Shown: piece by piece, positions 11,082-32,956 of the stretch | Numbering within the stretch: position 1 is the first letter of the stretch | Layout of the letters: every line of letters starts with the position of its first letter | From: Candidatus Sericytochromatia bacterium | Lineage (GTDB): Bacteria; Cyanobacteriota; Sericytochromatia; S15B-MN24; VGJW01 | Reading direction: 5' to 3' | NCBI GenBank assembly: GCA_035286125.1 | Contig: JAYKIS010000037.1 | Coordinates: 5,365 to 69,364 of the forward strand | DNA: 64,000 nucleotides | Notes under the pieces: generated by a model | Databases searched by the model: none | The model's input: the letters and a program-made list of their open reading frames with translations, nothing else | What the model was told of the DNA's origin: nothing | Translations under genes and position numbers: made by a program

Positions 11082-11108
11082 GGCAGGATTCCTGGCGTGA
11101 GGTGGCGA

Positions 11109-12410: not shown

Positions 12411-12493
12411 GGACGGGGACCTCGTGCTTGGCTGCGGACAGGTTGCGGATGTCTTGGACGGTCGTCCTAATCTGACCTTACCACGCGAGGGGC

Positions 12494-12542
12494 GGGGGGA
12501 AACCCCCAAAGGCAACGGGCGGCCTCTCGAGGAGACCGCCCG
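12494..12542 (-). terminator. Stem-loops downstream of tRNA-Thr
   Basis: On the minus strand: CGGGCGG-N13-CCGCCCG, followed by TTGCCTTTGGGGGTTTCCCCCC. The second part is a GGGGG-TTT-CCCCC mini-hairpin in T-rich context. Confidence 0.5.
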
Positions 12543-12552
12543 TCGGCACCAG

Positions 12553-12624
12553 AGCCGAAGATGGGATTTGAACCCACAACCTACGGTTTACGAAACCGTT
12601 GCTCTGCCGTTGAGCTACTTCGGC
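12553..12624 (-). tRNA. tRNA-Thr (anticodon CGU)
   Basis: Hand-folded cloverleaf: acceptor GCCGAAG/CTTCGGC, D-arm GCTC-AACGGCA-GAGC, anticodon arm ACGGT-TTCGTAA-ACCGT, T-arm GTGGG-TTCAAAT-CCCAT. Length 72 nt. CCA is not encoded. Confidence 0.9.
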
Positions 12625-12711
12625 AAGCTTGGCCGTGCTGGTGGCCCGGGCGTACACTTTGCCATGGATATGCTCGATTGTCGATGGCGGCACAGGGGGT
12701 AGCATGGGGCC

Positions 12712-14085: not shown

Positions 14086-14447
14086 GCGGGGGCCGGAAAC
14101 CGCACGGCCAGCAGTGCCTCTTCGGCCATGCCGGATGCCTGGTACCACAGCAGATCGTCCGAATCCGGCCCCAGGATGACGGCCACGTGACCCGCCGTAG
14201 GGCCGGCCTCCCTGGGCGGATGGCACAGCCGGATGCCTGCGTCCCCCGATGGCGGATGGTCCGGACGGCGTGCGTCCCGCAACGTGATGCCCAGCGTCAT
14301 CGCGACCCCCAGGGCCATGCCGTCCCACGGGGCCTCTGCAAGCAGGACTCGGCTACCGGTGCGCGTCCCCAGCCACCCCAGTGCCAGAGTGGCCGCGGCC
14401 TCGGGCGTCTGGCAACAGGGCGCGTCTTCGTGCGGACGTGGCATCAT
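14082..14447 (-). CDS. Hypothetical 121-aa protein
   Basis: It exactly fills the gap between the GH1 and phosphatase genes. I hand-checked GC3 at roughly 80 percent G/C. I recognise no family. Its stop shares a CTAG tetranucleotide with the GH1 stop. Confidence 0.45.
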   Translation of the reverse strand: MMPRPHEDAPCCQTPEAAATLALGWLGTRTGSRVLLAEAPWDGMALGVAMTLGITLRDARRPDHPPSGDAGIRLCHPPREAGPTAGHVAVILGPDSDDLLWYQASGMAEEALLAVRFPAPA

Positions 14448-14952
14448 GCGTCCATGTCAGGTCGATTCCGGGGCGGGTGTCCACGTGCACTATGACTGGA
14501 TTACGCCTCGCGTGGCCCTGGGGTCCCGGCCCGCCAGTGCATGGGATCTCCGGGAACTGGCCCTGGAAGGAGTCACGCATGTCGTGAACATGGCGGCCGG
14601 ACTTGAACTGGGGCAGATCCTGGTCGAGGCATCCGCCGGTGGGCTCGACCCCTTGCCTGCGGTTGCCGCATTCCCCATCGGGGATGCCGAGGATGGCGCC
14701 GGTGCGCGGGGGCACCTGCTGCGCCAGGCCGTGGCGCACGTCGCTCACGTGCTGGATCAGGCCGAGGGGCATCGCGTCTATGTGCATTGCGTCCACGGGG
14801 TCTCGCGCTCGGCGACCGTCGTGCTGGGATGGCTGATGCACGATCAGGGCATCGGGGTAGGCGAGGCGTTGTCCCGGCTCAAGGCGGCGCGCCCCAAGGC
14901 CTCGCCGCATCCGCTGCTGGTGGCCGAGATGCTGGACGTACCTACGGTCTGA
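14446..14952 (+). CDS. Dual-specificity (Cys-based) protein phosphatase
   Basis: Active-site loop HCVHGVSRS (HCxxGxxRS). The start is ambiguous: ATG 14446 abuts the divergent ORF, and GTG 14485 is the alternative. Confidence 0.75.
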   Translation: MRPCQVDSGAGVHVHYDWITPRVALGSRPASAWDLRELALEGVTHVVNMAAGLELGQILVEASAGGLDPLPAVAAFPIGDAEDGAGARGHLLRQAVAHVAHVLDQAEGHRVYVHCVHGVSRSATVVLGWLMHDQGIGVGEALSRLKAARPKASPHPLLVAEMLDVPTV

Positions 14953-14965
14953 CGACCCAAGAGGA

Positions 14966-14998
14966 CGACCCCCCCGGCAAGGATTGCCGAAGGGGTCG
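14966..14998. terminator. Bidirectional stem-loop between convergent genes
   Basis: CGACCCC-cc-CGGCAA-GGA-TTGCCG-aa-GGGGTCG, lying between the stops at 14952 (+) and 15018 (-). Confidence 0.45.
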
Positions 14999-15017
14999 CT
15001 GCGACGGTCCAGAGGTC

Positions 15018-16136
15018 TCAGAACGAGACGCCGGCCTCGAAGAACGGACCGGACTCCACCGTCGCCCGGAAGGTGTCCTGCAGCGTCTTGGCCTTGGCCA
15101 CGGCATCATTCTGGATGGCAGTGGGGGCCGAGCCATTGAGCACGCTCGTGGGATTCAGGCCCGTCGGCAGGGCCGAGCCCAGCAGGCTGCCGAAGGCGGA
15201 GCCGAAGTCCGTGCCATAGCCCGTCAGCCGGAAGCGCTGGCCGAACTTGACCTTGATGCCATAAAGCGTGAAGCCGAGGGCCGCCTCGGCCTCCGCGGGG
15301 GCCAGGGTCGCGGCTGCTGCAGCTCCGTCCGCCACCGTCAGCGGCGCGATGCCGCCCAGCAGATCAAGGCCGGCGCTGACGGGACCGAGGCCCAGGCCCA
15401 GACCGTAGCCCACAAGGAACTCGTTGAGCGACACGTCCTTGTCCGGTGCGACACCCGGGATGCCCCGATAAGTCTCGCGACGGTAGCCGGCACGCAGGCC
15501 GAGCGCCTTGCCGTAGAAGCCGGTGTAGCCCTGGCTGAGCAGGGGAGAAGGGGCTGAGAGCAGCGAACTGGCAACCGAGGCAGTCTGGGCGTTTCCGGGG
15601 GCGGTCCGCATGCCCGCGGCCTCGAGGCCGCCCGAGAAGATCAAGAAGCCCAGTTCGGCCTTGAGCGCGTTGAGTGATGCGCCGCTGGAGGCCTGGGAGG
15701 CGAGCTTGGGGTTCTGCAGGTTGGGGATCGTGACCGCCGCGTTGGTCACAGGAACGGTGAAGCTGGTGTCCTCGAACGACACGAAGTTGTTGCTCACGTC
15801 CTGCTGGTATCGCGAACCTGCCATGACCTCCATCCAGAAGAAGGGGGGCAGCTTGGGAGGCCAGCCAAGGTTCATGCCGCCGGATGCCGGGGCCTCATCG
15901 GCCGTCTCCTTGGCAACCTTGCCGCTCATGACGAGGCCGTCGGTCGTGCCGCCGGGAGCCTTGGCAGGCGCAGCCGCCGGTGCGGCCGGCGCGGGAACGG
16001 CCGGGGGAGCCGGCACGGCGGGGGCATTGTCCGCGGGCGCAGGGCTGGAGCGCCGGATCTGGGCCTGGGCAGGCGCGGCGATGACAATCGAGGCTGCGAG
16101 CAGGGCAACGGTGCCGATGGGTCTGGTGATGTTCAT
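15018..16136 (-). CDS. Outer-membrane beta-barrel protein of unknown function
   Basis: Signal peptide ending AAPAQA, a Pro/Ala-rich linker, alternating Gly/aromatic-rich strands, and a C-terminal ...FFEAGVSF (terminal Phe). Confidence 0.75.
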   Translation of the reverse strand: MNITRPIGTVALLAASIVIAAPAQAQIRRSSPAPADNAPAVPAPPAVPAPAAPAAAPAKAPGGTTDGLVMSGKVAKETADEAPASGGMNLGWPPKLPPFFWMEVMAGSRYQQDVSNNFVSFEDTSFTVPVTNAAVTIPNLQNPKLASQASSGASLNALKAELGFLIFSGGLEAAGMRTAPGNAQTASVASSLLSAPSPLLSQGYTGFYGKALGLRAGYRRETYRGIPGVAPDKDVSLNEFLVGYGLGLGLGPVSAGLDLLGGIAPLTVADGAAAAATLAPAEAEAALGFTLYGIKVKFGQRFRLTGYGTDFGSAFGSLLGSALPTGLNPTSVLNGSAPTAIQNDAVAKAKTLQDTFRATVESGPFFEAGVSF

Positions 16137-16154
16137 GGTGTCGGGGGAGCCTCC

Positions 16155-17609
16155 TCAGGTCTCCAGGGCATGGTCCAGCAGCAGGCTGGCCTCTCCAAGG
16201 CTCTTGCGCTTCAGCGCCGATTCGACTTTGGCAATGTCGGATCGGAGCTTCGCTGCCTTGGTCACGGTGGGGTCCGCGAGCAATTCGGAGGTGCGCAGCA
16301 GGTCCATCGCGGCCTTGCGCGCGGCCGCATGCTGGCCACCCTTGATTTCGTTGGCGCAGGATTCGGCCAGATCCGCCATCTGGTTCGAGCGATTCACGAT
16401 GAGCCCGTCGAAGACCTCGGCGGTGCGCGCGAGGACGCTGGCGCTACGCAACAGGTTGGGGTCGATTTCGCCCTTCATCATCTTGCGGAGCGCCATCCCG
16501 CCCTTGATGAGCTCGACGGCCCGGCCGAAGACCTGATCTCCCATCACGGCGCTGCCGCAATGGACCAGGATGGCAAGCGGCACGACGAAGGGATACTGCC
16601 TGGCCTTGAGGGTCTCGACCAGTTGCAGCAACTGCTTGTCGATGAGCTTCCACTTGTCCTGATTGCCCACGGCCGAGACCTCGGTCCGATCGGTGACTTC
16701 GGGAATCTCGACGTCCTCGCCACCTGCAGCCACGACCGAACCTGCCGTGATGACCTGTTCCGACAGATCGGCGACCGCAGCGAAGTCCTTGGCAGTGAGG
16801 CCCTTGAGCAGCTTGCCGCCGACCTTGGCCAGGAACCGCGACTGGCGGTGCATCTCCTTGTCGAGACGGACGAGGCGGACGTCGAAGTCGCGGCACCACG
16901 TTTCGATCGTGTCGGGCTCCCGGGCCTCGAGTGCTTCCTGCAGCTTGGGGACGATGCCGCGAACCTCGCGAGCCTCCTTCAGAATGTCGTCGCCAAGCAG
17001 GCCGATTTCCCCCACGAGGCGCACGGCCAAAGGCTTGAGCACGGCCGCATTTCGGCTGCGAGCGGCATCCCGGAGCACCTTTTCGAGGCTGTTCAGTGCC
17101 TCGATGCGGGCTGCCTCGGTACGCAGCAGGCTGTCGGCCTCCGCCGTTCGGTCCTCGAGGAGCAGGCCGATGGCCGCGACGTCTCCGCGGTCATACATCG
17201 GCTTCAAGTCGTCGATGAGCGGCTTGCGGCGCTTGAGGTCCTTGGGCTCATCCTTGCGCCGGAAGAAGCTCTCGATGCGGATGCGCATCGTCTGCGTCAG
17301 TTCGTTGGTCTTGCTCCTGGGCTCGTCACCCTGAGCCTTTCCCCACGTGCGCCCGGTGGGCGAGGCGACGCTATCACCGGCCTTGCGTGCGGAAAAGAAG
17401 TCCTTGGGCGGAGCCTTGCCTTCGGGGACGGCGGCCGGATCCAGCTTGCCTGTACCGCGCGCCGCGAGCGGCCCGGTACCTCTTGGCGGGGCGGTGCGGC
17501 CCTTGGCGGCGATGGAGCCGGTGCGGCCCTTTCTGCCCTTTTTTCTACCCTTCTTGCCACGACCGAAGCCCCCCTTCAGGAGGTCCAGCAGTTTGTTAAG
17601 GAGGCCCAA
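16155..17609 (-). CDS. Hypothetical 484-aa helical protein with an N-terminal amphipathic helix and a polybasic tract
   Basis: No signal peptide or TM segment. N-terminus MGLLNKLLDLLKGGFGRGKKGRKKGRKGR. High GC3. Its stop is 18 nt from the OMP start. Confidence 0.7.
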   Translation of the reverse strand: MGLLNKLLDLLKGGFGRGKKGRKKGRKGRTGSIAAKGRTAPPRGTGPLAARGTGKLDPAAVPEGKAPPKDFFSARKAGDSVASPTGRTWGKAQGDEPRSKTNELTQTMRIRIESFFRRKDEPKDLKRRKPLIDDLKPMYDRGDVAAIGLLLEDRTAEADSLLRTEAARIEALNSLEKVLRDAARSRNAAVLKPLAVRLVGEIGLLGDDILKEAREVRGIVPKLQEALEAREPDTIETWCRDFDVRLVRLDKEMHRQSRFLAKVGGKLLKGLTAKDFAAVADLSEQVITAGSVVAAGGEDVEIPEVTDRTEVSAVGNQDKWKLIDKQLLQLVETLKARQYPFVVPLAILVHCGSAVMGDQVFGRAVELIKGGMALRKMMKGEIDPNLLRSASVLARTAEVFDGLIVNRSNQMADLAESCANEIKGGQHAAARKAAMDLLRTSELLADPTVTKAAKLRSDIAKVESALKRKSLGEASLLLDHALET

Positions 17610-17690
17610 TCTTCCACCTGACGGTCACGGGAGCATCGCAGTCTAGCATTACCGCCGCCCGCCCGTTGTGACCAAAGTCCGCAGACGCGC

Positions 17691-18698
17691 TCAGTGATAG
17701 GGAATGGGTAGAGGTGGCCGGTAGCGGGGGCGCTCGACCTTGGTGCCGGCGATATCCGGCAGGTAGGTGATCATCTCGCCGCGGAGTGTAGACACCGTGA
17801 AGCCTGTCTCCAGCTGCTCGCGATACATCGGCATGTAGTACTGCATCGGCGAGTCAGGCGTGTCGTCAATAAGTTGCAGCTTGGCGTCGAATACGAGGTT
17901 GTTGTTGCTGAGGACATTGCCGCCCCACATCAGGATGTAATTCCGGGCCGGTTCGGGCGGCACCGGACGCTCGCGCCGGACGCTGTCATCGAAGCGCATC
18001 GTGACCCGACCCTGCTGTATGGTGGCGCCGGTGCAAAAGGCCCTCATCGCGGGTGGGGGAATCATGCGGTCCGGATAGAGGATGATGTCGTTGCCCTCGA
18101 TACGCACGCCCTTGTCCTCCCGGGCCTGCAGCATCTCTGCGAGGTCTACCCCGACGACGTCCAGCAGGCCCTTGACCGGCAGGCCATTGGACTTGATCCG
18201 ATCCGGGCGCAGGACGAGTTGCCCCTTGCCGTTGGGGCGCAGATCCCCCTCGATTTCGCAGATGGTGGTGACACCGAACTTCTTGAGCTTGGCCGTTTGG
18301 CGCAAGCGCCCATTGCTGCAAGAGATGCGGATGTCGCTGATGGGCGAGTTCGGGAAATTGAATACGTACCGGTTCATCAGCGCGGCCATGGCCTGCTCCG
18401 TCATGGTGAACTCGGCCACGTGGACCTTGACCAGATAGTCGTTGACGTTGCCGGGAATGAGTGGCTTGCCCAGGTCGTAGGGCAACAGGTCTGCATCCAT
18501 CGCGGGAATGTCGACAACGATCTGCTCGTCGATTCGGTAGGCCACGTTCTGCATGTAGAAACGGGTCGGGGCACCCTTGGGTTCCTCGAAGGGGGTTCGC
18601 GTGGGTGTGGGCGCCGGCACCTCGGTGCCTGCAGGGGAGCCGCCGCAGCCGGCCAGTGCTACGCAAGCCACGGCCGCAAGGGCCTTGAGCCTTTGCAT
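17691..18698 (-). CDS. Lipoprotein of unknown function
   Basis: MQRLKALAAVACVALAGCGG gives a signal peptide plus lipobox. The track ORF starts 10 codons earlier at 18728. I am not confident of any family assignment. Confidence 0.7.
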   Translation of the reverse strand: MQRLKALAAVACVALAGCGGSPAGTEVPAPTPTRTPFEEPKGAPTRFYMQNVAYRIDEQIVVDIPAMDADLLPYDLGKPLIPGNVNDYLVKVHVAEFTMTEQAMAALMNRYVFNFPNSPISDIRISCSNGRLRQTAKLKKFGVTTICEIEGDLRPNGKGQLVLRPDRIKSNGLPVKGLLDVVGVDLAEMLQAREDKGVRIEGNDIILYPDRMIPPPAMRAFCTGATIQQGRVTMRFDDSVRRERPVPPEPARNYILMWGGNVLSNNNLVFDAKLQLIDDTPDSPMQYYMPMYREQLETGFTVSTLRGEMITYLPDIAGTKVERPRYRPPLPIPYH

Positions 18699-18799
18699 CG
18701 TGGACGAGGGGGCGCCGTGGGGGTGCATACTCTGATTGTCGTCGGAGAGGCTGCCAAACTGACGTCTTGGGGTTAAGGTTCGCTGATGGGATGCCTAAA

Positions 18800-19789
18800 T
18801 CATACCGGTTTGGCATAGGTATCGAGTACGGTGAAGAGGGCCTCGGCCGTGCGGGTCTGGTTGACGGCGTGGCGCAACTCGGCGGAACCCGGAAGGCCCT
18901 TGGTGTACCAGGCCACATGCTTGCGGCACTCTGGCACGCCTTGCGCCTCGCCCTTCTCCTCGATGAGCAGCCGGCAATGTTCCCGGGCCACCCCGAGGCG
19001 AACGTCCGGTGCAGGCTCGGGGGGCATTTCCCCGGTCTTCAGGTATGTGTCGATGCGCGGTATGATCCAGGGATTCCCTTGGGCGCCCCGGCCGATCATG
19101 ACGCCGGCGCAGCCCGAGGCCTTGAGACGCTCCGCGGCAATCAGGGGGTCCCAGAGGTCCCCGTTGCCGACCACGGGAACGGAGACGGCCGAGGCCACCT
19201 CGGCAATGGCCTCCCAGTCAGCAGAGCCCGAGTACATCTGGCTGCGCGTCCGGCCGTGGACCGTGATCATCTGCACCCCGCAGGATTCCGCGAGCCGGGC
19301 GACGGCGACATGGTTCCGCAACTGCTCGTCCCAGCCCAGCCGCATCTTGATCGTCACGGGGACCTGGTCGCCCACGGCTCCGACCATCGCCGTCAGGATG
19401 CGCCCGAGCAGGGGCAGGTCCTTGAGCAGGCCGCTGCCGTCGCAGTTCTTGGCAATCTTGGGGACGGGACAGCCCAGGTTCAGGTCGATGACGTCTGTGC
19501 CTGCGGCCGCAAGGATCCGGGCTGCCTGGCCCATGGTCTCCGGTTCGTGGCCGAAGATTTGCAGGCCAAGAGGACGCAGGCCCGGCGGGATGTCGACCTT
19601 CAGGCGACTCTTCCAGTGGACCAGACCCACGGCGCTGAACATCTCGTGGAAGATCAGGGATCGTTGGTCGAAACGACGCAGGAGCTTCAGATAGGGGACA
19701 TCGCAGACGCCGCACATCGGCGCCAGGATCACCCGGCTGTCGAGCGTCAGCGGGCCAATGCGGAAGGGTTGTTCAAGTGCGGGGGGCAT
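18800..19789 (-). CDS. dusB: tRNA-dihydrouridine synthase
   Basis: Dus motifs LAPMCGVCDxPY, LNLGCPVPKI and MIGRGAQGNPW. 329 aa. Confidence 0.9.
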   Translation of the reverse strand: MPPALEQPFRIGPLTLDSRVILAPMCGVCDVPYLKLLRRFDQRSLIFHEMFSAVGLVHWKSRLKVDIPPGLRPLGLQIFGHEPETMGQAARILAAAGTDVIDLNLGCPVPKIAKNCDGSGLLKDLPLLGRILTAMVGAVGDQVPVTIKMRLGWDEQLRNHVAVARLAESCGVQMITVHGRTRSQMYSGSADWEAIAEVASAVSVPVVGNGDLWDPLIAAERLKASGCAGVMIGRGAQGNPWIIPRIDTYLKTGEMPPEPAPDVRLGVAREHCRLLIEEKGEAQGVPECRKHVAWYTKGLPGSAELRHAVNQTRTAEALFTVLDTYAKPV

Positions 19790-19795
19790 ACCCCG

Positions 19796-20176
19796 TCAAG
19801 AATACCGCTCAAGTGACGCCGGGCGCAGCCCCCTGTACTGCTGACAGAAGGCTTCGTAGACGGGCGCGAACAGTTCGAAGGCGCCGGCGCGCATCCGGGT
19901 CGGGGGCAACGCCGACCCCCAGCCACCCAGGTGAATGATGAGGTCCTGGGAAGCCATCGAAAGGTCGCGCATCCCCTCGATCAACCGAGCCGCCTCCTCG
20001 CCCGAGCACCCTTCGATGCAGCCGAGGAAGCCTTCGCCCGAGTCCGCGATCCGGATCGAGATGCGCCCCTCCCCGAAACGATCGAGCAGGGCCTCCGTGG
20101 TTCCGGCCACGTCGCAGGCCTCGGCGTCCCCGTCAAGCTGGAAGACAAAGGCGTGTCCACGCGGCTCGAACATCAA
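19796..20176 (-). CDS. Hypothetical 126-aa protein
   Basis: High GC3 on hand inspection. Its stop is 7 nt upstream of the dusB start. No motif recognised. Confidence 0.55.
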   Translation of the reverse strand: MMFEPRGHAFVFQLDGDAEACDVAGTTEALLDRFGEGRISIRIADSGEGFLGCIEGCSGEEAARLIEGMRDLSMASQDLIIHLGGWGSALPPTRMRAGAFELFAPVYEAFCQQYRGLRPASLERYS

Positions 20177-20319
20177 TGCCCGTGACCCCTTTCGCCCGTG
20201 GATGCGACCATTTGGCCCCCTTTTTCGTACCCCCGGAGGCGAGTCGCGTAACCCCGCGATTGACGCCCCCGCCCATCCCCTGATAGCCTTGGCCGCCCCT
20301 AGCCGTCTTGAGGAACCTC

Positions 20320-20547
20320 GTGCCCCAGCCCGCCCTGCGCCACCGCATCCGCGTCCGACATGCCGATGGCACGGTGATGGAACTCGACCGGGACCCCGAG
20401 CGCGAGGTTGGCGAACTGGTCACGGCCGACGCCTTGGCGTGGCCCGGTGCTCCCGTGAAATTCATCGTCACGGGGAAGTCGGTCCAGCCCGGTTCCGATG
20501 TCGAGCCCCGCGAGACGGTCTACCAGGTCCAGCCCGTCGGCGCCTGA
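20320..20547 (+). CDS. Hypothetical small protein (75 aa)
   Basis: High GC3. A GAGGAA RBS lies 4 nt before GTG 20320. The track ORF starts at TTG 20308. Confidence 0.45.
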   Translation: MPQPALRHRIRVRHADGTVMELDRDPEREVGELVTADALAWPGAPVKFIVTGKSVQPGSDVEPRETVYQVQPVGA

Positions 20548-20615
20548 ATCGGTCCCGGCCGCAAGAAGGCCGCCCGCCAGAAGCTGGCGAGCGGCCCGTC
20601 CGCGTTTCCGGAACG

Positions 20616-21731
20616 CTACTTCAGGATGAAGCCGACGCCGACCTCATAGGTGAAGCCGCCCACATCGACGGTGTTGTCGAGGCCATTTGCCGTCGCCTGG
20701 CGAATGCCCTTCTGCGCGGGGAAGTTGACGAAGCCCAGATTGAGGAAACTCTCCGGGGTGAAGCGAAGCATCAGTCCCGCCTTGGTCAGCAGGGCGTTGC
20801 GGAAGTCGTTGTCGCCCACGATGAAGCCCTGGCCGAGGCCGCCGTAGAGGTTGACGACCCGGTTCTTGGTCTCCTTGTAGAACAGCGGATCGAGGGACAG
20901 CAGGAAGGCTGCGTTGAGGTTGAACAACTGGACACTGACTTCCTGCTTGACGGGCTTTCCGAGCGACGAGAATCCGCCCTCGAGGCCGAATGCGAAGTTC
21001 TCGAGGAAGCTGCTTTGGCGCAGCAGCCCGAGGCTCAGGCCAAGACTGCCATCGGCGGTGACGGGCGTACCGGTTCCGGGGTTGCCGCGCGAGGTCGACA
21101 GCCCCTGGAACACGCCGCTGATGTACAGGCCCGAGTCTCCGTAGCGCCGCTCTTCCTCGGCCTTCTGGCGGCGCTCGGCCACGACGTCGCGGTTGGGCTC
21201 GGTCTGGAAGCTCTTGGACCAGACGATGGCACCATCCAGCGCCCGGACGAGCTTGAAGTTGACGATGACGTTCTTGCCCGTGCCCATGGTGTGCCACATC
21301 AGCACGCCGTCGACGCCCAACTGGTGGCCGATCTCGGCAAGCCGCGCGTTGCTCTCGATGGTATTGGAGTAGCTGAAGCTCCTGTCGTCGGACACGACAC
21401 GCGGGGTCCGGCATTCGCGACACTCGACGACCCGGAACCGGTTGGTCCGGATCAGTTCGTCCGTGATACGGGACTCGATGAGCGAGTTGAGTTCGGGAAA
21501 GCGGTCCTGGCGGGTCTCCCGGAAGACCACGACCTTGACGAGGCCCGGATCCACCGTCCGGATGGAATCAGGGAACCCGGCGAAGAGTTGGTCGAACAGT
21601 GCCGGGCTGGTCAGCATGGCGACGGCCGGATCCTCGCTGACAGCCTGCTTGTTGTCGGCGGCCAGAGCTGCCGGCACGTGCAGGCCGAGTACAGCCAGGC
21701 CGGCGAGGGTAACGAGGGTGCGACGAATCAT
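20616..21731 (-). CDS. Outer-membrane protein: CsgG/LpoB/FlgO-like N-domain plus a C-terminal beta-barrel-like region
   Basis: Signal peptide MIRRTLVTLAGLAVLGLHVPAALA. The N-domain pattern (VVVFRE...LNSLIESRITDELIRTNRFRVVE...LGVDGVLMWHT...NFKLVRALDGAIVW) matches the small periplasmic ring/activator fold. The C-terminal half has amphipathic Gly/aromatic strands. This is the third gene of the 20616-25449 operon. Confidence 0.65.
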   Translation of the reverse strand: MIRRTLVTLAGLAVLGLHVPAALAADNKQAVSEDPAVAMLTSPALFDQLFAGFPDSIRTVDPGLVKVVVFRETRQDRFPELNSLIESRITDELIRTNRFRVVECRECRTPRVVSDDRSFSYSNTIESNARLAEIGHQLGVDGVLMWHTMGTGKNVIVNFKLVRALDGAIVWSKSFQTEPNRDVVAERRQKAEEERRYGDSGLYISGVFQGLSTSRGNPGTGTPVTADGSLGLSLGLLRQSSFLENFAFGLEGGFSSLGKPVKQEVSVQLFNLNAAFLLSLDPLFYKETKNRVVNLYGGLGQGFIVGDNDFRNALLTKAGLMLRFTPESFLNLGFVNFPAQKGIRQATANGLDNTVDVGGFTYEVGVGFILK

Positions 21732-21765
21732 CGGGGTCACCTGAATCAGGGTTTGGTGGCAGGGG

Positions 21766-23460
21766 TCAGCGGCGGGAACGGGCATTGATGCGCCCCAGGC
21801 TCTGTCGGACGTCCGTCAGGCCGGGGTCGAGGTCCAGGGCTCTGGACCAGGAGATGCGGGCAAGCCCCAGGTCACCCATCTTGTAGTAGATGGAGCCCTG
21901 CAAGGCCAGGACCTGGGCATTGTCCGGTGACAGGTCGAGAGCTCGTGCCACCTCGGCCAGGGCCTTGTCGTAACGTCCCGAGTAGGCGAGACGCTGGGCC
22001 GACAGAAATCGACGCTGGATCTCCCCGGCCAGGGCCGCCACTTCACTCGGCGAAGGTGTCAACACCACGACTGGTGGCGAGGGATAGGGGGGAGGTGTCG
22101 GATAGGGCGGTGGCGTCGGATACGTCGGGAACTTGAAGTCCGTAGGCAGCTTGTTCTCGATTTCGATCTTCGAGACGGACTCGACCTTGGAGCGTTCCGA
22201 CACCTCGCTGCGTTGCGTCGCGTCGGATCGGATCGTGCTGTCGCTGCGGATGTTGGTGTCGGAACGGTTGTCCGACCGCGCGTTCGTGTCCTGCTGGAAA
22301 CGTGCCTCGGAGCGCTGCATGCCGGCGGGTCCGTAGCCCTCTCCTCCCATCATGGCCTGTGGCGCGCGCATCACCGCGGGCTCGGCCACGGCAGGCTTGG
22401 GCTCGGGACTGGGTTCAGGGGGCACCACAACCTTCATGTACAGGTCGCGATCCTCGGGGAACAGCAGGCTTTCCAGATCCACCGAACTGCCCTTGCGCTT
22501 CAGGCGGATGAAGTCTCCCCCCTGGCGCGGCGGATCGGCAGGCGTTGCCACTGCCGGTGCGACAGGCGTGGCCTGCGCGGGCGCGGCCGCCACCACGGCC
22601 GGCCTGACCGGCACGAACTCGTCGAGACGGGGCACCCGGGGCGTAGGCTCGGATACGAAGCGGAATGCGGGTGCTGGCGTCTCGCCCGGTTGCCGTGCAT
22701 AGGGGTTGGCGCGGGGTGCGGCAAGGGGTGCCGCCATGGGCGCAGGCGGTGGTGCCACGCGCAGCCCGGGCCCGGATGGACGCGCGGAGGGCACGGCCAC
22801 GACGGTGGTCGGCGGCGCGGGAACCTCGCCGCCAGGCACAACGGGGGCCTGGGGTGCAGGCGGCAGGGGGCCGACGGCCGCCGCGGGCACTGGGGGCGGC
22901 GTGACGGGGACCGAGGCGCCTTCCGCGGGGGTCGGGCCAGCCGTGAGCACGGGGGCCACGGCCGGTTCGGGCCCGACGGCCACCTCCTGAGGACTCGTCG
23001 AGGCCGGGGGAGCATCGGGCACTTCGGGGGCGGAAGCGGCTTCGACCGGCGCAGCGACTGCGGCGGCCACCTCCCCGGCGACTGGCGCCTCCGTCGGCGT
23101 CACGGCCTCCGGATGCGCAGCGGCTGGTCCTGGCTCGGCCTTGGCCGCCACGACCTCACCGGGCCGACCGGTCACGCCCGAGGCGACGTCGACGACCTCG
23201 CGCAGGCGGCCCTCCTCGAATCGGAGAACATACCGGGCGGAGCCCGGCTGGCCGTAGGTCATCTCTTCGATCGTGCCTTCGGGACCCCCGGTCATCTGCG
23301 ACAAGGGCACGCCAAGGAACTCGACCACCTTCTGGGGGCTCATGCCCGGGCGAAGTTCGCCCAGGTGCTCGACGGCCGCGTGAGCCCGGGCGACGACGGG
23401 ATGCACGATCAGGCTGGCTGCCAGCCCGAAGGCCATCAGGGAGGGACGGCGCGAACCCAT
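21766..23460 (-). CDS. Secreted BamE(SmpA/OmlA)-like / Pro-Ala-rich / TPR protein
   Basis: Signal peptide, then LRPGMSPQKVVEFLGVPL...YVLRFEEGRLREV (BamE-like). That is followed by about 300 aa of P/A/V-rich sequence, RSD-type repeats and YPTPPP repeats. The C-terminus has TPRs (YSGRYDKALAEVARALDLSPDNAQVLALQGSIYYKMGDLGLARISWSRALDLDP). Confidence 0.7.
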   Translation of the reverse strand: MGSRRPSLMAFGLAASLIVHPVVARAHAAVEHLGELRPGMSPQKVVEFLGVPLSQMTGGPEGTIEEMTYGQPGSARYVLRFEEGRLREVVDVASGVTGRPGEVVAAKAEPGPAAAHPEAVTPTEAPVAGEVAAAVAAPVEAASAPEVPDAPPASTSPQEVAVGPEPAVAPVLTAGPTPAEGASVPVTPPPVPAAAVGPLPPAPQAPVVPGGEVPAPPTTVVAVPSARPSGPGLRVAPPPAPMAAPLAAPRANPYARQPGETPAPAFRFVSEPTPRVPRLDEFVPVRPAVVAAAPAQATPVAPAVATPADPPRQGGDFIRLKRKGSSVDLESLLFPEDRDLYMKVVVPPEPSPEPKPAVAEPAVMRAPQAMMGGEGYGPAGMQRSEARFQQDTNARSDNRSDTNIRSDSTIRSDATQRSEVSERSKVESVSKIEIENKLPTDFKFPTYPTPPPYPTPPPYPSPPVVVLTPSPSEVAALAGEIQRRFLSAQRLAYSGRYDKALAEVARALDLSPDNAQVLALQGSIYYKMGDLGLARISWSRALDLDPGLTDVRQSLGRINARSRR

Positions 23461-23463
23461 GGC

Positions 23464-25449
23464 CTAGCCCTCCGCCAGCGTCTTCATCGAGAAGCGACCC
23501 TGGCGCACCATGTCCCGGATCCGGCCCACCACCTCGCGGCGGGCGGTCTCGGCACCATCCGGATCGACAGGCTGGCCCTCGAGACGTTCGAGCGCGTCCA
23601 TCAGCAGGGCGCGCCGCTTGTCGGTCATAGCGCCCAGCACGGCTTCCTGCAGGGGCTCCTCGGCGTCACGGATCGCCTGGGCGACGACGCCGGGATCAAG
23701 TTCGCGCACCGCGTCCTTGATGACGGCGGCAGGCAGTCGTGGCAGGTCGGCGAAGGTCAGGTACAGTTCGCGAACCTTGCGCATCATGTCGGGGTTCTGG
23801 GTCTTCAGGTTGTCGAGGATGCGCTGCTCGGTCGTCGCGTCGGCATTGTCGAGGATGTTGACCAGCAGGCCGACGCCGTCGGTGACGACGGCGCTGAAGG
23901 ACGGCGCCTGCGATGCCTTCATCGCCAACTTCTCGGCAATGCTCTCGAAGGTCGTGAGCGGGATGGCCTCGAGCTCGCCCAGCGCCGTCGCGACGGGCCC
24001 CTGTTCCTCGACCGGCCACTTGGCCATCAGGCCGGCAGCCCGCTTGTAGGGCAACTGGGACAGCACCAGGGCCCGGACCTTGGAACCCTCGTCCTGCAGA
24101 ATCCAGAGTACCTGGGAATCGTCGATGCGATCGAGGAAGCTGAAGGGTGCCAGCTTGCGCCCGACCTGGGCGCCCTGCTCGGCCTTGGCTGCGACGAGCA
24201 GGGGATAGGCCTCCTCGAGCACGGCGACGGCTTCATCGGTCGCCACATCGCGGGTCGAGAGCAGCGCGGCCTCGACGCGGGTCCTCTCCTCATCGGCGAG
24301 GCCGGGCACGGTCCTGGCGGCCTGGGCCATGCCGAGGACGCGAAGCAGGTTGGCGACCTTTTGCAGGCCTTCCTCGCGCCGGGCGAGGCCGCCGATCATC
24401 GGCGCGGCCAGCTCGGGTTGCTCGAGCAGCATGGCCACGATCTCCTGACGCAGGGCCTGCGCGGCCCGAGCTGCCCGCTGTTCTTCCGCAGACGGCCCTG
24501 CGGGGGCCTGAGCCTCCTTGGCTGGCTGGGGCATCAAAGCCGACGCCCAGGCCGGAGGTGCATCAGTGGCAGGAGCGGCATCCGGCTTTCGGCGCCGCAG
24601 CAGCGCAATCAGGCCCAGGACGAGGCCGAGCCCCAGCAAGCCGAGCAGGACCGCCAGCATGGTGCGGATGGCAGGATCGCTCTCGCCGGCAACAGGTGCG
24701 GTTCCGGCTGCCAAGGGGGCGGCGACGGGCAGGCCGGCTGCCGTCGTCACGCTGTCCGTGCCGGTGGCGGCCAAGGCGGCGGCCTTCTGCAGCGTCGGCG
24801 GGAACTGCCGGTTCATGATCTCGAGGCTGTCGCCGCGGGCGAAGTTGAGGTCCGCCTTCTGGTAGATCAGCTTCTCGATGAAGTCGCGCTCTTCCTGAGC
24901 GAGGTTCTTCTCGATGACCGTCAGGATGCGGACGCGGTCGATGCGCAGGCCCGCCGCTTCCGCGACAGGGGCCGCAGCCTGCTGGGCCACGGGAGGCAGC
25001 GACGGCGGCGCCGCGACTGGCGCCGCTGCCGGCCTCGCTGCGGCGGGACGCGCCGGCAGGCCGGGCAGGTCGACCTCGTCCGGATCCAACGGTTCGGTCC
25101 CGGGCAGGTTGGCCGTGAGCGCCGGCTGCAACGGGGCCGGCAACACCTGCAGCGGACGCGGTCCCTGCCCGTGGATGCGCTGCATCTTGACACGGACCTG
25201 GACGATGAACCTGTCGTTGCCCAGGTAGGATGTCATCGCCTGCTTGAGGCTCTCCTCGAGCAGTTTCTCGTAGCTCAGCTCCTCGAGCACCACGCCGTCC
25301 TGCCGGGCGTCGGTCGGACCCGCCGGCAACTGCGCGAGCGCAGGTTCCGCGAACGCGCCGGGCAGGCTGGCCAGGACCGCCACGCAAACCGCACGCAAGG
25401 CGCCGGAAAGGGGCTGGGCGCTCGCCGAGAAGGGCCGTGGGGCTCGCAT
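23464..25449 (-). CDS. Membrane protein: FliF-like periplasmic ring motifs, a TM segment and a FliG-like cytoplasmic region
   Basis: Start at ATG 25449 (MRAPRPF..., with hydrophobic segment ALRAVCVAVLASLPGAFA). There are two ring-building-motif-like segments, a TM helix (IRTMLAVLLGLLGLGLVLGLIALLRRRK) and about 340 aa that align by eye to the FliG N, M and C domains (PFSFLDRIDDSQVLWILQDE; YLTFADL...VRELD...AIRDAEEPL...MTDKRRALLMDALE). See findings. Confidence 0.65.
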   Translation of the reverse strand: MRAPRPFSASAQPLSGALRAVCVAVLASLPGAFAEPALAQLPAGPTDARQDGVVLEELSYEKLLEESLKQAMTSYLGNDRFIVQVRVKMQRIHGQGPRPLQVLPAPLQPALTANLPGTEPLDPDEVDLPGLPARPAAARPAAAPVAAPPSLPPVAQQAAAPVAEAAGLRIDRVRILTVIEKNLAQEERDFIEKLIYQKADLNFARGDSLEIMNRQFPPTLQKAAALAATGTDSVTTAAGLPVAAPLAAGTAPVAGESDPAIRTMLAVLLGLLGLGLVLGLIALLRRRKPDAAPATDAPPAWASALMPQPAKEAQAPAGPSAEEQRAARAAQALRQEIVAMLLEQPELAAPMIGGLARREEGLQKVANLLRVLGMAQAARTVPGLADEERTRVEAALLSTRDVATDEAVAVLEEAYPLLVAAKAEQGAQVGRKLAPFSFLDRIDDSQVLWILQDEGSKVRALVLSQLPYKRAAGLMAKWPVEEQGPVATALGELEAIPLTTFESIAEKLAMKASQAPSFSAVVTDGVGLLVNILDNADATTEQRILDNLKTQNPDMMRKVRELYLTFADLPRLPAAVIKDAVRELDPGVVAQAIRDAEEPLQEAVLGAMTDKRRALLMDALERLEGQPVDPDGAETARREVVGRIRDMVRQGRFSMKTLAEG

Positions 25450-25551
25450 GCAGGTCACCGGGGCAGAGGGTCGGGGCAGGATTCTTTGTCTTCTCCGGAC
25501 CTTGCGGCAGGCGACCGGAGCTGTGTTGGACATCACCATACCCCATGCGCC

Positions 25552-26742
25552 ATGCTCTCAAAAGCCATGACAGGGAGAACCGTGGACAACGGGATCATCC
25601 GGGGCCGTACCTGGTACCTGGATGTGCACGCCACGACCCCGGTCGCCGAGGAGGTCCTGGCGGCGATGTGGCCCTGGTTCTCCGAGCGGTTCGGCAATCC
25701 CGCATCCTCGGGGCACGCCTGGGGCTGGGAAGCCCGGGGCGGTCTGGAGGGTGCCCGCGACCGGCTTGCCGGCCTCCTGGCCGTCGCGTCCGGCGAACTG
25801 GTCTTCACGAGCGGGGCGACCGAGGCCAACCACCTTGCCCTCACGGGTGTCCTCGAGGCGGCCGGGGTCGGAAGCCGCCTCATCTGCCAGCCGACCGAGC
25901 ACGCCTCGGTCCTCGAGGTCGCCCGTCGCTGGGGGCGGCAGGGCGGACGCGTGACGTTCCTGCCTGTGGACGGGGACGGCATGGTACCGCCCGAGGCCCT
26001 CGAGGATGCCCTGCGCGATCCGGCTGCCCTTGTCTCCGTGATGGCGGCCAACAACGAGATAGGGACGCTTCAACCCCTGGCGGAGCTGGGTGCCCTGTGT
26101 CGTGCGGCCGGCGTACCGCTGCATGCCGATGGCGCTCAGATACCGGGGCGCGTTCCCCTGGGGCAGGTTGTCCCGCACGTGGCCTTGTTGTCGCTTTCAG
26201 CCCACAAGGCCTATGGTCCCAAGGGAGTCGGCCTGCTCATGGTGAGGCGCCGGGGCCCAAGGGTTCGCCTCGAGCCGCAGGTCCTCGGGGGCGGACAGGA
26301 GGGGGGGCGTCGGGGAGGTACCGTCCCCGTGCCCTTGGTCGTCGGCCTCGCTGCCGCTCTGGACAGGGCAGAGGCTGGTGTCGGGGCGTGGTCGCGTCGG
26401 GGGCGCGATGCCGCGGCTTGCTGGCGCCGTGTCGTGGACGACGCCTTGCCGGGTGTCCGGTGGCTGGGCCATGCCGACCGTCGCCTGCCCGGCCACCTTG
26501 CCTTCGTGTTGCCGGACCGCACGGCGACGGATCTGATGCGCGCCTGCCCCGAGCTCGGGCTCTCCAGCGGCGCTGCGTGCCAATCCGGTGCGCCCAGCCA
26601 CGTCCTGCAGGCCTTGGGCTTCACGGCGGCCGAGGCTGGCCGCATGGTCAGGCTCGGCTGGGGTCCCCATCTCGACGAAAAGGACCCCGAGCTTGTGGCC
26701 GGGGTCCTCGAGCGCGGCCTTGGATGCCGCGGCTTGGCCTAG
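25552..26742 (+). CDS. Cysteine desulfurase (NifS/IscS class V aminotransferase)
   Basis: PLP-lysine motif SLSAHKAYGPKG and catalytic-Cys loop SSGAAC. This is only the last ~397 codons of the 1509-aa track ORF. The start could be ATG 25552 or ATG 25567. Confidence 0.85.
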   Translation: MLSKAMTGRTVDNGIIRGRTWYLDVHATTPVAEEVLAAMWPWFSERFGNPASSGHAWGWEARGGLEGARDRLAGLLAVASGELVFTSGATEANHLALTGVLEAAGVGSRLICQPTEHASVLEVARRWGRQGGRVTFLPVDGDGMVPPEALEDALRDPAALVSVMAANNEIGTLQPLAELGALCRAAGVPLHADGAQIPGRVPLGQVVPHVALLSLSAHKAYGPKGVGLLMVRRRGPRVRLEPQVLGGGQEGGRRGGTVPVPLVVGLAAALDRAEAGVGAWSRRGRDAAACWRRVVDDALPGVRWLGHADRRLPGHLAFVLPDRTATDLMRACPELGLSSGAACQSGAPSHVLQALGFTAAEAGRMVRLGWGPHLDEKDPELVAGVLERGLGCRGLA

Positions 26743-30033: not shown

Positions 30034-31530
30034 GTGCAGATACCTGCCGCCGTGGGGCATAACATGGGAGATTGTCCGGCGGTCGCATCCGCCGGGCAGG
30101 GAGACGCTGCCTTGTCCCAACAGGACCTCTTGACCCCGGCCCCGGCCCCTCGCACGGTCGTGGCCCGCCTGATCGCCCAACGCTACGGTCGGGTTCTGGA
30201 TGGCGACATGGCCGAGATGGCCCTCGAGCGCCTGGGGCGTCCCGGCGAGGAGCCCGAGGCCACGGCGCAACGTCTCGTCCGGGATCCCGAGGCCCACGAG
30301 CAGGACCTTATCCGCATGGCTGCGGTGGGCGAGACGTGGTTCTTCCGGGACCCTCTGCATTTCAGGTTGCTCGAGGAGGAACTGCTTCCCCGGTTGCTCC
30401 GGGATCTGTCGCGGCCCATCGTGGCGTGGGTGGCCGGCTGTTCGACGGGTGAAGAGGCCTACAGCCTTGCCATTGCGGCGCGACGGGTCCTGGGTGACGA
30501 GGCCCCCCACCGCATCCGCATCCTGGCCACCGATCTCAACCCGGCCTTCATCCAGCGTGCCCGCGCTGGCCTGTTCCTGAAGCGCAGCTTCCGGGGCACG
30601 ACGCTCGAGGACCTTGCCCCGTGGCTCGACGCCGAACCGGACGGCTACCGCGTCAAGGCCGAGGTGCGCGAGATGGTGACCTTCGCGACGCACAACCTTG
30701 TGCCTGACGAGGGCTACCAGACGCTGCTCGAAGGTCAGGCCGACATCGTCCTCTGTCGCAACGTGCTCGCCTACTTCGCCAAGGACACGTGTCGCTCCGT
30801 CAACCGCAAGCTTGCAGCGTGCGTGGCACCCGGCGGGGCCTTGCTGCTCGGGCCGGCCGAGACGGTACTGCACGACGCGGGTGCCCTTCGCCTCGAGCAA
30901 CGCGATGGTCTGTTCTATTACACCAGACCCGCGGATTCGGTTCCGGGCTCGATGCCGCCCGACATGCCCCTCCCGAGGGCCGTGCGCGCCGCCGAGTTCC
31001 GGCGGGCCACGGGTTTCCTCGGGGCGACCCCGCGGGCTCCGTATCACGGGGGCACCGGTCCCCTGCAACCGCTGCCGTTCCGCGCCGAGGTGGCCGAGGA
31101 GCCTTCGCCGGATGAGGGCCTGCTGGGTGAGGCGCTCATGCTGATTGATGTCGGCAATCTCGCCGACGCCGTCGTGCTGTGCCAGGCCGCGCTCGAGGAG
31201 GATCCCTGTCGTCCGGCTGCGCACTTCCTGCTTGGCCTTGCCCGTCGCCTTCAGGGCTCCTACCAGGAAGCCGTCCACCTGTTCCGGGCCGCCGCCTATC
31301 TCCAGCCCGATGACTGGCTCGCGCCGTTCCACCTTGCCGAGTCCTACCGCTCGCTGGATCGCTGGGACGAGGCCATCCGCGAGTACCGCAGCTGTCTGGC
31401 CCGCATGGATGCCGGACAGGTCGAGCCTGCCCCGGCCCTGCTCGGCGGCTTCTCCATCGCGTACTTCCGCAAGGCCTGCGAGCGCCACATCGAGCAGCTG
31501 GGCGAGATCCTGAGCGAACCCTCGGCGTGA
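30034..31530 (+). CDS. cheR: CheR-type protein-glutamate O-methyltransferase with C-terminal TPR repeats
   Basis: [27 protein letters not shown] and [19 protein letters not shown] motifs. The C-terminal ~150 aa are TPR-like. The start is uncertain: GTG 30034 or ATG 30064. Confidence 0.8.
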
Positions 31531-31598
31531 TGCTTTTGGCTCTGCCCGACTGACGCACGTCACCGAGGTTCTTCCGCTCGTCCGCCACAATCGGGCGT

Positions 31599-32942
31599 AT
31601 GAAGCGCGTGTACGTGGATGCGACGGAACGTCTGGAACGGGCCGATCGCGGGGCCTATGCGCCCGGGGACTGGGCGCGGCTTGCCGGTGTGGCAGCCCGC
31701 ATGCGGGAGGGCTGGCCCCGCGAGGAGCTGTTGTCTCCTGCGGCCTTGCCACCCACGCGCCGCGTGCAGCCGGCCGAGGAGCGTGCTGTCCGCGCAATCG
31801 TGGGGCGCTGCGGGGATCGCGCCGTCCTGGCGTGGCCGGAAGCCTTGGCGCCCTGGGGGGTGGGTGAGCTGTTGCTGCGGGAGTGGCTCGTCCGCGATCC
31901 CGGCCGCATCCTGGTCCTGGCGGCTCCGGGCAGGCTCGAGGCGTGGCGGCGTGTCCTTGAGGGCGCAGGACCCCGCGTCCACTGCATCGCGCAGGGCGAG
32001 CCCCTGCCGGATGAAGCGTTCACGGGTTGGCTCGTGGATCGGTGCGATCGGGGGCTTGCCGAGTTGCCCCGACCGGATGGTGTGCGGCGTGTCGTCCTGC
32101 TGGCGCCCCGCCCGTGGCCGGAGGAAGTTGGCCTGGCCGCGCTCTCCGATTGGCTGGGCAAGCGTGATGTGCCCCTGGTGTCTCTCGAACAGGCCATGGT
32201 GGTCGAGGAGACGGCACCAGCCGTCACGCCTGCGGCAATCGAGGGACGGTTGGTCGCCGTTCGGCCCTCGATAGCCGAAGGGGCCCTTCTGGCCGAGGTT
32301 GCCGCCCTCTCGGACTGGTTGGTCGAGACGGGACGCCTCGACGCGGTCGAGATTGCCGGGCCGTGGGTTCGCTTGTTGGCGACGGCCGAGGCCTGGCCCG
32401 GAGCCATTCCCCAGGTTGCCGCCCACCTGCTGGATCGGGAACGTGAACCGTTGGCCAAGGCGCGCCTGCTCTCCCTGTTGCGCGCGGGCCTGGAGGCGTG
32501 GGAGGTCGGGCCATCCCTCGAGGGGACGTTGCAGGCTCTCGTAGCGACCAGTCATCTCAGGGTCCGCCTCGCGGTCGCAACCTCGGTGATGGGCGAAGCT
32601 CTTGCGGCCCGCATGCCGGCAGGCGTCGACGTGGTGGTCGATGGCGAGGTCGGTCCGGACGCGGTGCATGACCTCTGGTTGCACGCCGAGCCCGTCATGC
32701 ACCCCCTGGACATGGCCAGTCGTAACGCGACCGGTAGCCGCCACCATCACCTGGTCCTCGCCGGCGGGCGCCTGCATCGGTGGCTGGCTGCACTCGATGT
32801 CCGTGGCCTGCTCGATGCCTCAGGTCCGATGTGGGCCGAGTGGGTCGCGAGACTTCCGGTCGCGATGGGGCCGGTCGACATCTGGCGCAATCCCGAACAG
32901 GCTGCGAGCCGCCTGGCCTCCATCCGTGACCAACTGGGCTGA
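31599..32942 (+). CDS. Hypothetical protein; possibly a degenerate (catalytically dead) SNF2-like two-lobe helicase
   Basis: A real gene by GC3 and by tight coupling to the next ORF. By-eye spacing resembles SNF2 motifs with the catalytic residues replaced: [16 protein letters not shown] for [27 protein letters not shown] for LIVxPxSLxxNW, VVLLAPRPW for DEAH. The assignment is an inference. Confidence 0.6.
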
Positions 32943-32956
32943 GGTTGGGCCCGAAC

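Follow-up and report, generated by a model that had tools for sequence, protein, structure and literature searches.

A natural FliF-FliG fusion encoded next to TPR and outer-membrane barrel proteins in Sericytochromatia: candidate parts of a flagellar-motor-like, non-flagellar machine

The closest known system to the genes analyzed here is the core of the flagellar motor. To our knowledge, FliG, FliF, and flagellar-type MotAB have so far been known as parts of the flagellum only. We analyzed a block of three genes, here called g1, g2, and g3, in a 64,000-nucleotide (nt) stretch of DNA (the window) from Candidatus Sericytochromatia bacterium (assembly GCA_035286125.1, contig JAYKIS010000037.1, positions 5,365-69,364) and found that g1 is a natural fusion of a signal or first transmembrane (TM1) segment, the ring-building motif 3 (RBM3) of FliF with an insert at the position of the collar, a transmembrane (TM) helix, and a complete FliG. 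In most relatives outside its own clade that have enough flanking sequence, the block adjoins motA and motB, and we judge it reasonably probable that g1, g2, and g3 are the non-stator parts of a five-component, envelope-spanning, flagellar-motor-like but non-flagellar machine with a stator-driven rotor. The likeness to the flagellar motor core lies in the homologues of FliF from RBM3 through the collar to its second TM helix (TM2), in the three FliG domains, and in linked PomA/MotP-like stators that have the plug, the Asp, and the OmpA-type anchor, with a charge pair of the R281/E98 type retained; further, the g1 fusion enforces a 1:1 stoichiometry of FliF and FliG. In contrast to the flagellar motor core, the module is without RBM1, RBM2, export gate, ATPase, rod, hook, filament, LP-ring, FliM/FliN, and the EHPQR motif, its FliF and FliG form one polypeptide, and its constant partners are a tetratricopeptide repeat (TPR) protein and an outer-membrane (OM) barrel protein.

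Engineered FliF-FliG fusions of Salmonella and Vibrio assemble MS/S-rings (PMC6079021, PMC11481574, PMC10941966), and the fused architecture is therefore compatible with ring formation. The engineered proteins are laboratory constructs with full-length FliF in a complete flagellum, whereas g1 is natural, N-terminally truncated, and a member of a separate family. The work of MotAB-family motors outside the flagellum has parallels in GldLM of the type IX secretion system (T9SS) gliding motor, AglRQS-Glt, and ZorAB, in which such a motor powers non-flagellar work across the envelope; these systems, however, have no FliG or FliF homologues, and their A and B subunits come from other branches of the MotAB family. 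In the part of a 2025 MotAB survey that we draw on, the plug, the OmpA-type anchor, and the large torque interface are presented as traits specialized for flagellar rotation, and the context of the present module is not described in that part (PMC12505986).

The preliminary description of this DNA had reported three tightly packed genes on one strand, and this is exactly what we find. All three genes lie on the minus strand, g1 at 23464-25449 (661 amino acids (aa)), g2 at 21766-23460 (564 aa), and g3 at 20616-21731 (371 aa), and the open reading frame (ORF) listing gives gaps of 3 nt between g1 and g2 and 34 nt between g2 and g3. The start of g1 is that used by NCBI for a 100%-identical protein, and the longest ORF extends to 25539; the longest ORF of g3, from 21785, would overlap g2 by 20 nt. 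Because the GC content at third codon positions (GC3) of the three genes is 0.80-0.86, which is typical for a window of 68% GC, we take them to be real genes. The bounding genes are likewise as reported, with a divergent class-V aminotransferase gene (Aminotran_5) on one side and a convergent ORF of 79 aa (20308-20547, plus strand) also delimiting the module. Pfam scans of the window covered the candidate genes that passed a GC3 filter, and flagellar, MotA/ExbB, and MotB families were absent from these genes; further, neither tblastn nor local MotA/MotB hidden Markov models (HMMs) found MotA or MotB in the 64-kb window, in agreement with the earlier statement that it has no flagellar or stator genes.

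The cytoplasmic part of g1 (aa 361-654; 23488..24369, minus strand) comprises FliG_N, FliG_M, and FliG_C, including the torque helix (DKRRALLMDALE), as delimited by Pfam and a PDB profile search. In Pfam, FliG_N scored 36.9 bits (aa 361-421), FliG_M 37.5 bits (aa 445-515), and FliG_C 67.7 bits (aa 546-654), all above their gathering scores. A profile of eight g1 orthologues matched Thermotoga maritima FliG in the PDB at an E-value of 1.6e-23 and also matched full-length Aquifex aeolicus FliG, and a broader g1 family profile matched FliG in the PDB at 4e-43. The AlphaFold model of g1 agreed with full-length A. aeolicus FliG in Foldseek (E 2.3e-11), and its FliG_C superimposed on 1qc7 with a TM-score of 0.9 and a root mean square deviation of 1.4 Å. 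We considered a generic MgtE_N helical repeat as the identity of the C-terminal region and rejected it (MgtE_N E 0.008 versus FliG_C 1e-18); the proposal that the region resembles full-length FliG stands, each of the three domains being above its Pfam cut-off. We note that g1 scored 73.1 bits against TIGR00207, the FliG equivalog model, and did not reach its cut-off of 226.7. The FliM-binding EHPQR motif of FliG_M is lost in g1, where T. maritima EHPQ aligns to DEGSK (profile consensus deGlk), and across 118 fusions only the E of this site is conserved. At the positions equivalent to Escherichia coli K264, R281, D288, D289, and R297, the torque helix of g1 has R, K, D, A, and E, respectively, and the R281 equivalent is R or K in 106 of the 118 fusions.

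The FliF part of g1 consists of a periplasmic RBM3-type ring-building motif (aa 53-213; 24811..25293, minus strand), with an alpha-beta/insert/beta-alpha-beta arrangement identified by the model, Foldseek, and HMM alignment, and of a TM helix (aa 259-286; 24592..24675, minus strand) that was found in the model and aligned to TM2 of FliF. In the model, a helix (53-76) and a strand (81-92) are followed by a disordered Pro-rich insert (93-166) and then by a strand (167-179), a helix (185-199), and a strand (208-213), and the break in the motif falls exactly where RBM3 of FliF bears its beta-collar. The mean predicted local distance difference test score (pLDDT) of the model is 57, with 70-85 in the folded parts. 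After FliG, the Foldseek matches to the model were about 19 FliF MS-ring, RBM3, or collar entries (probability 1.0, E 0.006-0.055), which ranked ahead of PrgK. A hydrophobic segment is found at the TM position in nearly all family members.

At the sequence level, g1 alone matched YscJ_FliF_C weakly (E 0.015), and 12 of 26 diverse family members matched this family, the best at 4.3e-5. In the PDB, the full-length family profile found residues 256-578 of Vibrio FliF at E 8.5e-8 and residues 216-558 of the Salmonella protein at E 1.2e-5, and an N-terminal profile of 26 family members had Vibrio FliF as its top match (E 2.5e-6, residues 257-491), covering RBM3 through the collar to TM2. An N-terminal profile built from only 14 members did not find FliF in the PDB. 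The FliF signal is thus real but weak, as the 26-member profile was needed and the 14-member profile missed it. In the HMM alignment to Vibrio FliF, the LPG motif of the g1 family (aa 128-130, inside the insert; kept in 115-116 of the 118 fusions) stands opposite IPG of the collar region, and its RGD motif (aa 205-207; kept in 104-115 of 118) stands opposite RGD of GRGDLLNV.

RBM1 and RBM2 are absent from g1, which has no YscJ_FliF match and about 200 periplasmic residues, the alignment to FliF starting only at about residues 216-257; against TIGR00206, the FliF equivalog model, g1 scored 13.2 bits and did not reach the cut-off of 129.75. We conclude that g1 is outside FliF and FliG at the equivalog level and in RBM1/2, EHPQR, and flagellar context, while the domains themselves are shared. 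The preliminary description was right about the hydrophobic N-terminal segment, the TM helix, and FliG, but had seen several ring-building motifs where we find one, of the RBM3 type, split by an insert of about 75 aa.

A metagenome scan seeded with a nine-sequence g1 alignment yielded 24 further loci, which were annotated with HMMs built from the module proteins. In relatives with 53-56% g1 identity, the genes are tightly packed in the order motB-g1-g2-g3-motA, and these relatives share the flanks of the window, with acetyl-CoA synthetase, Rieske protein, and aminotransferase genes on one side and ORFs of 86 and 124 aa on the other. More distant loci have the order g1-g2-g3-motA-motB, and g3-g2-g1-motA-motB prevails among the 24 metagenome loci. 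Both motA and motB adjoin the module in 16 of the 18 non-redundant loci outside the clade of the window that had enough flanking sequence. The three genes, which had been described from the window as one module, occur together wherever a relative has enough flanking sequence, at identities that range from 97% to as low as about 22% and in several phyla. Beyond the five genes, we found no further neighbor conserved across phyla; locus L001 also encodes secreted proteins of 254 and 251 aa and a response-regulator kinase, but these are clade-specific. None of the flagellar export, rod, hook, filament, and switch families occurs within 10 kb in the loci of the five relatives for which we had gene and Pfam tables.

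The linked MotA had its best match, over the full length, in MotP/PomA (174 bits, E 2.8e-51), followed by Clostridium sporogenes MotA at 148 bits and PomA at 129 bits, and the linked MotB has a MotB_plug, the TM Asp, and an OmpA-like domain. We therefore rejected a TolQR-type motor as the identity of the stators, since MotA matched TolQ at E 0.002 and ExbB at E 0.021, compared with 2.8e-51 for MotP; MotB matched ExbD at E 0.089. The equivalents of PomA R88K89 and E96E97 in the linked MotA are RK and ED, and the equivalent of E98 is kept in all 17 module-type MotAs. From these sequences, we assign the linked stators to the flagellar (PomA/MotP-like) type, and they form a distinct subfamily, because their scores lie below the NCBIfam equivalog cut-offs (174 versus 394 for MotA).

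Some loci differ in layout. In L039 (2660-6334; AT-rich metagenome), a 430-aa protein weakly similar to g1 is encoded directly upstream of a 789-aa g1 homologue, and neither motAB nor g3 is nearby; the system is possibly split or duplicated here. The lineage of L009, L010, and L021 (L009 7733-10777) has two stator sets in the operon, motA-motB-motB-motA, which are the two MotA subtypes of the tree described below. The locus from a gammaproteobacterial metagenome-assembled genome (MAG), L017, has the order motA-motB-g3-g2-g1, and its operon (5191-18819 with flanks) is preceded by a Sel1/SPOR protein and followed by BBP2_2, Wza (Poly_export), a Wzz/GNVR kinase, and Wzy_C, an exopolysaccharide export cluster.

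An exhaustive profile search of 1.84 billion representatives gave 3384 matches, 96 of them at E < 1e-30. The fusion architecture is present in at least 116 clusters at 50% identity, in that 116 of the best 150 matches were at least 540 aa long, and in the fusion clusters the match extended over all of the periplasmic, TM, and FliG regions. Named hosts are few and comprise MAGs of Gammaproteobacteria, Pseudomonadota, and Deltaproteobacteria besides Sericytochromatia; all sources are uncultured. Full-text literature searches on Sericytochromatia and Tanganyikabacteria, on FliG paralogues and fusions, on FliG-like proteins with FlgO, on FliG or MotAB outside flagella, and on orphan or relic motors led us to canonical motors, to the engineered fusions, and to the survey of MotAB, but to no description of the system. 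The five-gene set is widespread and apparently undescribed.

The product of g3 has a signal peptide that ends ALAA|DNK, with no Cys after the cleavage site and hence no lipobox. In its AlphaFold model (pLDDT 76.5), an alpha/beta domain is followed by a charged helix and then by eight long strands at residues 202-371. In Foldseek, the barrel matched OmpA, Ail, NspA, OmpX, and OmpW (E 2e-7 to 4e-4), and the N-terminal domain matched LpoB with a TM-score of 0.67 and also the TolB N-terminal domain, GNA1162, and PelC. Pfam FlgO (PF17680) was matched by 13 of 15 g3 family members, the best at E 1.7e-6; g3 of the window itself scored 12 bits (E 0.17) against a gathering score of 22.6, and an NCBIfam search with g3 gave no match. 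The model and Foldseek agree with the earlier view of g3 as a secreted protein with a small alpha/beta domain and a barrel-like C-terminal half, and g3 is accordingly predicted to be a secreted OM protein with a FlgO/LpoB-type domain and an 8-stranded OmpA-like barrel. In Vibrio, FlgO belongs to an OM-anchored ring around the motor, the H-ring (PMC13521929). The N-terminal domain of g3 resembles it in the FlgO/LpoB-type fold and probably belongs to the same Pfam family, whereas FlgO is a small lipoprotein with an N-terminal Cys anchor; a lipoprotein FlgO orthologue was rejected as the identity of g3, which has the C-terminal barrel instead of the lipobox Cys. We saw neither FlgP nor FlgT, the H-ring companions of FlgO, with g3.

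In g2, a signal peptide is followed by an N-terminal domain, a linker, a conserved motif, and C-terminal TPRs. The middle part comprises the Pro/Ala-rich linker, the conserved motif IRLKRKG...FPEDRDLY, a Ser/Arg-rich stretch, and PTPPPYP repeats, and two to three TPRs lie at aa 487-560 (Pfam TPR_2, E 2.3e-9). The earlier account of g2 as a secreted protein with a Pro/Ala-rich linker and TPRs holds, but its BamE-like domain is weakly supported; the N-terminal domain (aa 31-95) scored 15.1 bits (E 0.021) against Pfam BamE, covered half of the profile, and fell short of the cut-off of 23.2. This domain is kept within Sericytochromatia, whereas g2 proteins of other phyla lack it; these are short (190-260 aa), consist of the motif and TPR core, and are sometimes lipoproteins. 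Because g2 is this short elsewhere, a periplasm-spanning g2 spacer is a clade-specific elaboration. The C-terminal TPR core adjoins g1 in nearly all loci. We note that the g2 linker is hypervariable, the protein length rising from 564 aa in the window to 625 aa in L006 and, with long PVAVATP-type repeats, to 923 aa in L001 (12023-14794).

The g1 protein of the window is 97% identical to a protein from a Candidatus Tanganyikabacteria MAG and 89% and 79% identical to proteins from two Sericytochromatia MAGs. The source of the window is thus Tanganyikabacteria-like within the Sericytochromatia, a non-photosynthetic group related to Cyanobacteria. The three species of this clade (clade A), found by a contig scan with clade-specific patterns, have a locus of g1-g2-g3 alone, without motAB. 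In GCA_035285865.1, which encodes the 89%-identical g1, a motB-motA pair lies on another contig; a MotA named Tanganyikabacteria shares a 90% cluster with this unlinked MotA, and a Lake Tanganyika contig has the same unlinked arrangement of motB, motA, and then a cyclic nucleotide monophosphate (cNMP)-binding/FeeM-like gene. In a rough neighbor-joining tree without bootstrap, the unlinked clade A MotAs cluster with those encoded beside the module in L001 and L009, and all module-type MotAs are separate from the nearest flagellar-named MotAs. Within clade A, the ratio of nonsynonymous to synonymous substitution rates (dN/dS) is 0.07-0.09 for g1, 0.12-0.17 for g2, and 0.05-0.10 for g3, at dS of about 0.8-1.7; we excluded values against the 54% relative, for which synonymous sites are saturated. 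The dN/dS range of 0.05-0.17 points to strong purifying selection on each of g1, g2, and g3. Further, the FliG part is the best conserved region of g1, both within clade A and between clades. For the clade of the window, the best-supported reading is that the stator is encoded elsewhere, and the preliminary hypothesis of a non-flagellar, envelope-spanning ring or scaffold with its stator elsewhere gains support from the linked stators of relatives and from the unlinked pair in GCA_035285865.1. As a side observation, the unlinked motB-motA pairs (L008 9323-11937; L042 5193-7906) are each time followed by a gene for a FeeM-like acyltransferase with a fused cNMP-binding domain, which hints at cyclic-nucleotide control of the unlinked stator locus.

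Taken together, these components suggest how a stator-driven machine would be arranged. By analogy with FliF and with the engineered FliF-FliG fusions, g1 would oligomerize into a ring in the inner membrane, with its periplasmic portion resembling the S-ring and collar and its cytoplasmic portion forming a FliG ring. PomA/MotP-like MotA5B2 stators, anchored to peptidoglycan through the OmpA-like domain of MotB, would supply the drive; homology and gene linkage suggest that ion flow would cause the stators to exert torque on the torque helix of FliG_C and so turn the ring. The products of g2 and g3 would be the periplasmic and OM partners and would serve as the moving load or, alternatively, as an anchor or bushing similar to the H-ring. 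Since the module lacks an export gate, rod, hook, filament, and FliM/FliN switch, its output would not be flagellar swimming, and candidate outputs are surface motility, movement of an OM component, or envelope or polysaccharide-related work. As FliM and FliN are missing, the device would have no canonical switch. We regard the system as a flagellar-type rotor-stator module that is probably used outside the flagellum, and we see a substantial chance that it deserves the name of a new machine. The more specific proposal that the five-gene set is a free-standing, ion-driven rotary machine of an undescribed kind, independent of the type III export apparatus, is a tentative possibility.

Several observations weigh against a stator-driven rotor. 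First, the torque interface appears to be conserved in part only; the D289 and R297 equivalents in g1 are A and E, the D288 equivalent is acidic in just 38 of 118 fusions, and the R90 equivalent of MotA is R or K in 11 of 17 module-type proteins and S or H in the unlinked MotAs of the clade of the window. Second, the g1 model is of modest confidence, and its collar-position insert (aa 93-166) is predicted to be disordered. Third, loci L033 and L039 have g1 without adjacent motAB, and use of the unlinked MotAB by the module of the window is suggested by orthology alone. Finally, ring formation, rotation, and contact among g1, g2, and g3 are what we infer from analogy with the flagellar motor.

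In an alternative that we regard as unlikely but deserving of attention, the module would be a non-rotating force transducer resembling Tol-Pal or TonB, in which MotAB docks on the FliG domains of g1 and conformational work is passed via g2 to g3. Its purpose would be envelope maintenance, OM tethering, or export, and g1 would not turn continuously. The parts list runs parallel to that of Tol-Pal and ExbBD-TonB, in which an ion-driven 5:2 motor is coupled via the periplasm to an OM partner; the motor pair and inner-membrane transducer are joined by a TPR protein (CpoB in Tol-Pal) and an OM partner with a TolB-N/LpoB-fold domain. The long Pro-rich periplasmic spacer of g2 in the clade of the window recalls TonB, the torque-helix charges are only partly conserved, and one operon abuts Wza/Wzc/Wzy export genes. 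However, the motor of the module is clearly of the flagellar type (PomA/MotP, with plug and OmpA domain) and not of the ExbBD/TolQR type, and its inner-membrane partner is not TolA or TonB but a genuine ring-building FliF-RBM3/FliG protein, of which the sole known role is that of a rotating ring. Further, most family members have no Pro-rich spacer, their g2 being only about 190-260 aa long.

It is also conceivable, although improbable, that in the clade of the window the module became independent of a stator and persists as a passive envelope tether or scaffold after motAB left, the unlinked MotAB serving another purpose. This would account for the lack of motAB at the locus in all three clade A species, for the cNMP-binding/FeeM-like gene that always follows the unlinked pair, and for the non-basic R90 equivalent of the unlinked MotAs. 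The cytoplasmic FliG domains, however, would be without obvious use in a tether, yet FliG is the best conserved region of g1 in clade A and between clades and g1 evolves under strong purifying selection (dN/dS 0.07-0.09); in addition, the unlinked MotAs fall together with the type-i MotAs that are linked to the module in L001 and L009.

That the module is simply the sole fliF-fliG of an ordinary flagellum, with accessory genes and with the remaining flagellar genes elsewhere in the genome, is very unlikely, its probability being close to negligible. Database names ("FliG C-terminal domain-containing protein" at NCBI and "flagellar motor switch protein FliG" at JGI) and a CheR gene 4.6 kb from the module point in that direction, and some Melainabacteria, which are non-photosynthetic relatives of cyanobacteria, are flagellated (PMC6340189). 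We discount it because RBM1/RBM2 and EHPQR are missing (with 13 versus 130 bits for TIGR00206 and 73 versus 227 bits for TIGR00207) and because the operon is without export, rod, hook, and C-ring genes, Proteobacteria included; in about 25 distinct loci, proteobacterial ones among them, the operon partners are the TPR protein and the OM barrel protein and never flagellar genes, and the 64-kb window has no flagellar gene. A decaying, non-functional remnant of a lost flagellum, which the loss of stator genes from the locus in the clade of the window might suggest, is effectively refuted by the intact reading frames, by dN/dS of 0.05-0.17 for g1, g2, and g3, and by the same gene set with near-invariant motifs across phyla.

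If the stator-driven reading is true, a rotor-stator module is able to work as an independent machine, in several phyla, and offers motor researchers a stripped-down, possibly unidirectional rotor. Such a stand-alone motor module is a candidate for the debate on how the flagellum was assembled from parts. If the FliF, FliG, and MotA branches prove to be sister to the flagellar ones, the motor module may have had, or may still have, a life of its own and would represent a concrete, testable intermediate for a modular origin of the flagellum; if they are derived instead, the motor would have undergone a new exaptation to a role in the envelope or in motility. The module would also point to a function in the envelope of Proteobacteria and of uncultured bacteria that are related to Cyanobacteria but not photosynthetic.

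A promoter and terminator scan of 20200-25800 gave nothing above shuffle expectation on the relevant strand, and an Rfam search of the whole window found one tRNA only, with no riboswitch upstream of g1. The convergent 79-aa ORF accompanies the module in both clade A and clade B; it is 47% identical to the 86-aa protein of L001 (tblastn, E 1.6e-18) and is also found in L006 and L011. Together with a 126-aa ORF (19796-20176, minus strand), it is without a family and stands beside the module in both Sericytochromatia clades, and we saw no counterpart of either ORF beside the module in other phyla. Membership of the 79-aa ORF in the system is doubtful.

On the other side of the module, a gene at 30034-31530 (plus strand) encodes a CheR methyltransferase with C-terminal TPRs and is followed by Pfam-less ORFs at 31599-32942 and 32945-34918 and by a convergent gene (34893-38324, minus strand) for a zinc-ribbon/adenylate-guanylate cyclase/AAA_16/TPR protein. 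This set (30034-38324) also adjoins the module in L006 and may be a signaling input to it. Further away, two MlaE-type permease genes and an MlaD-domain gene (41683-44651) form a lipid-transport-like cluster that is apparently unrelated to the module. Downstream of dus, three Pfam-less genes for proteins of 372, 484, and 345 aa (15018-18728, minus strand), the 345-aa one with a lipoprotein-like signal ending LAGC, keep their order in L006 and are partly conserved in L011.

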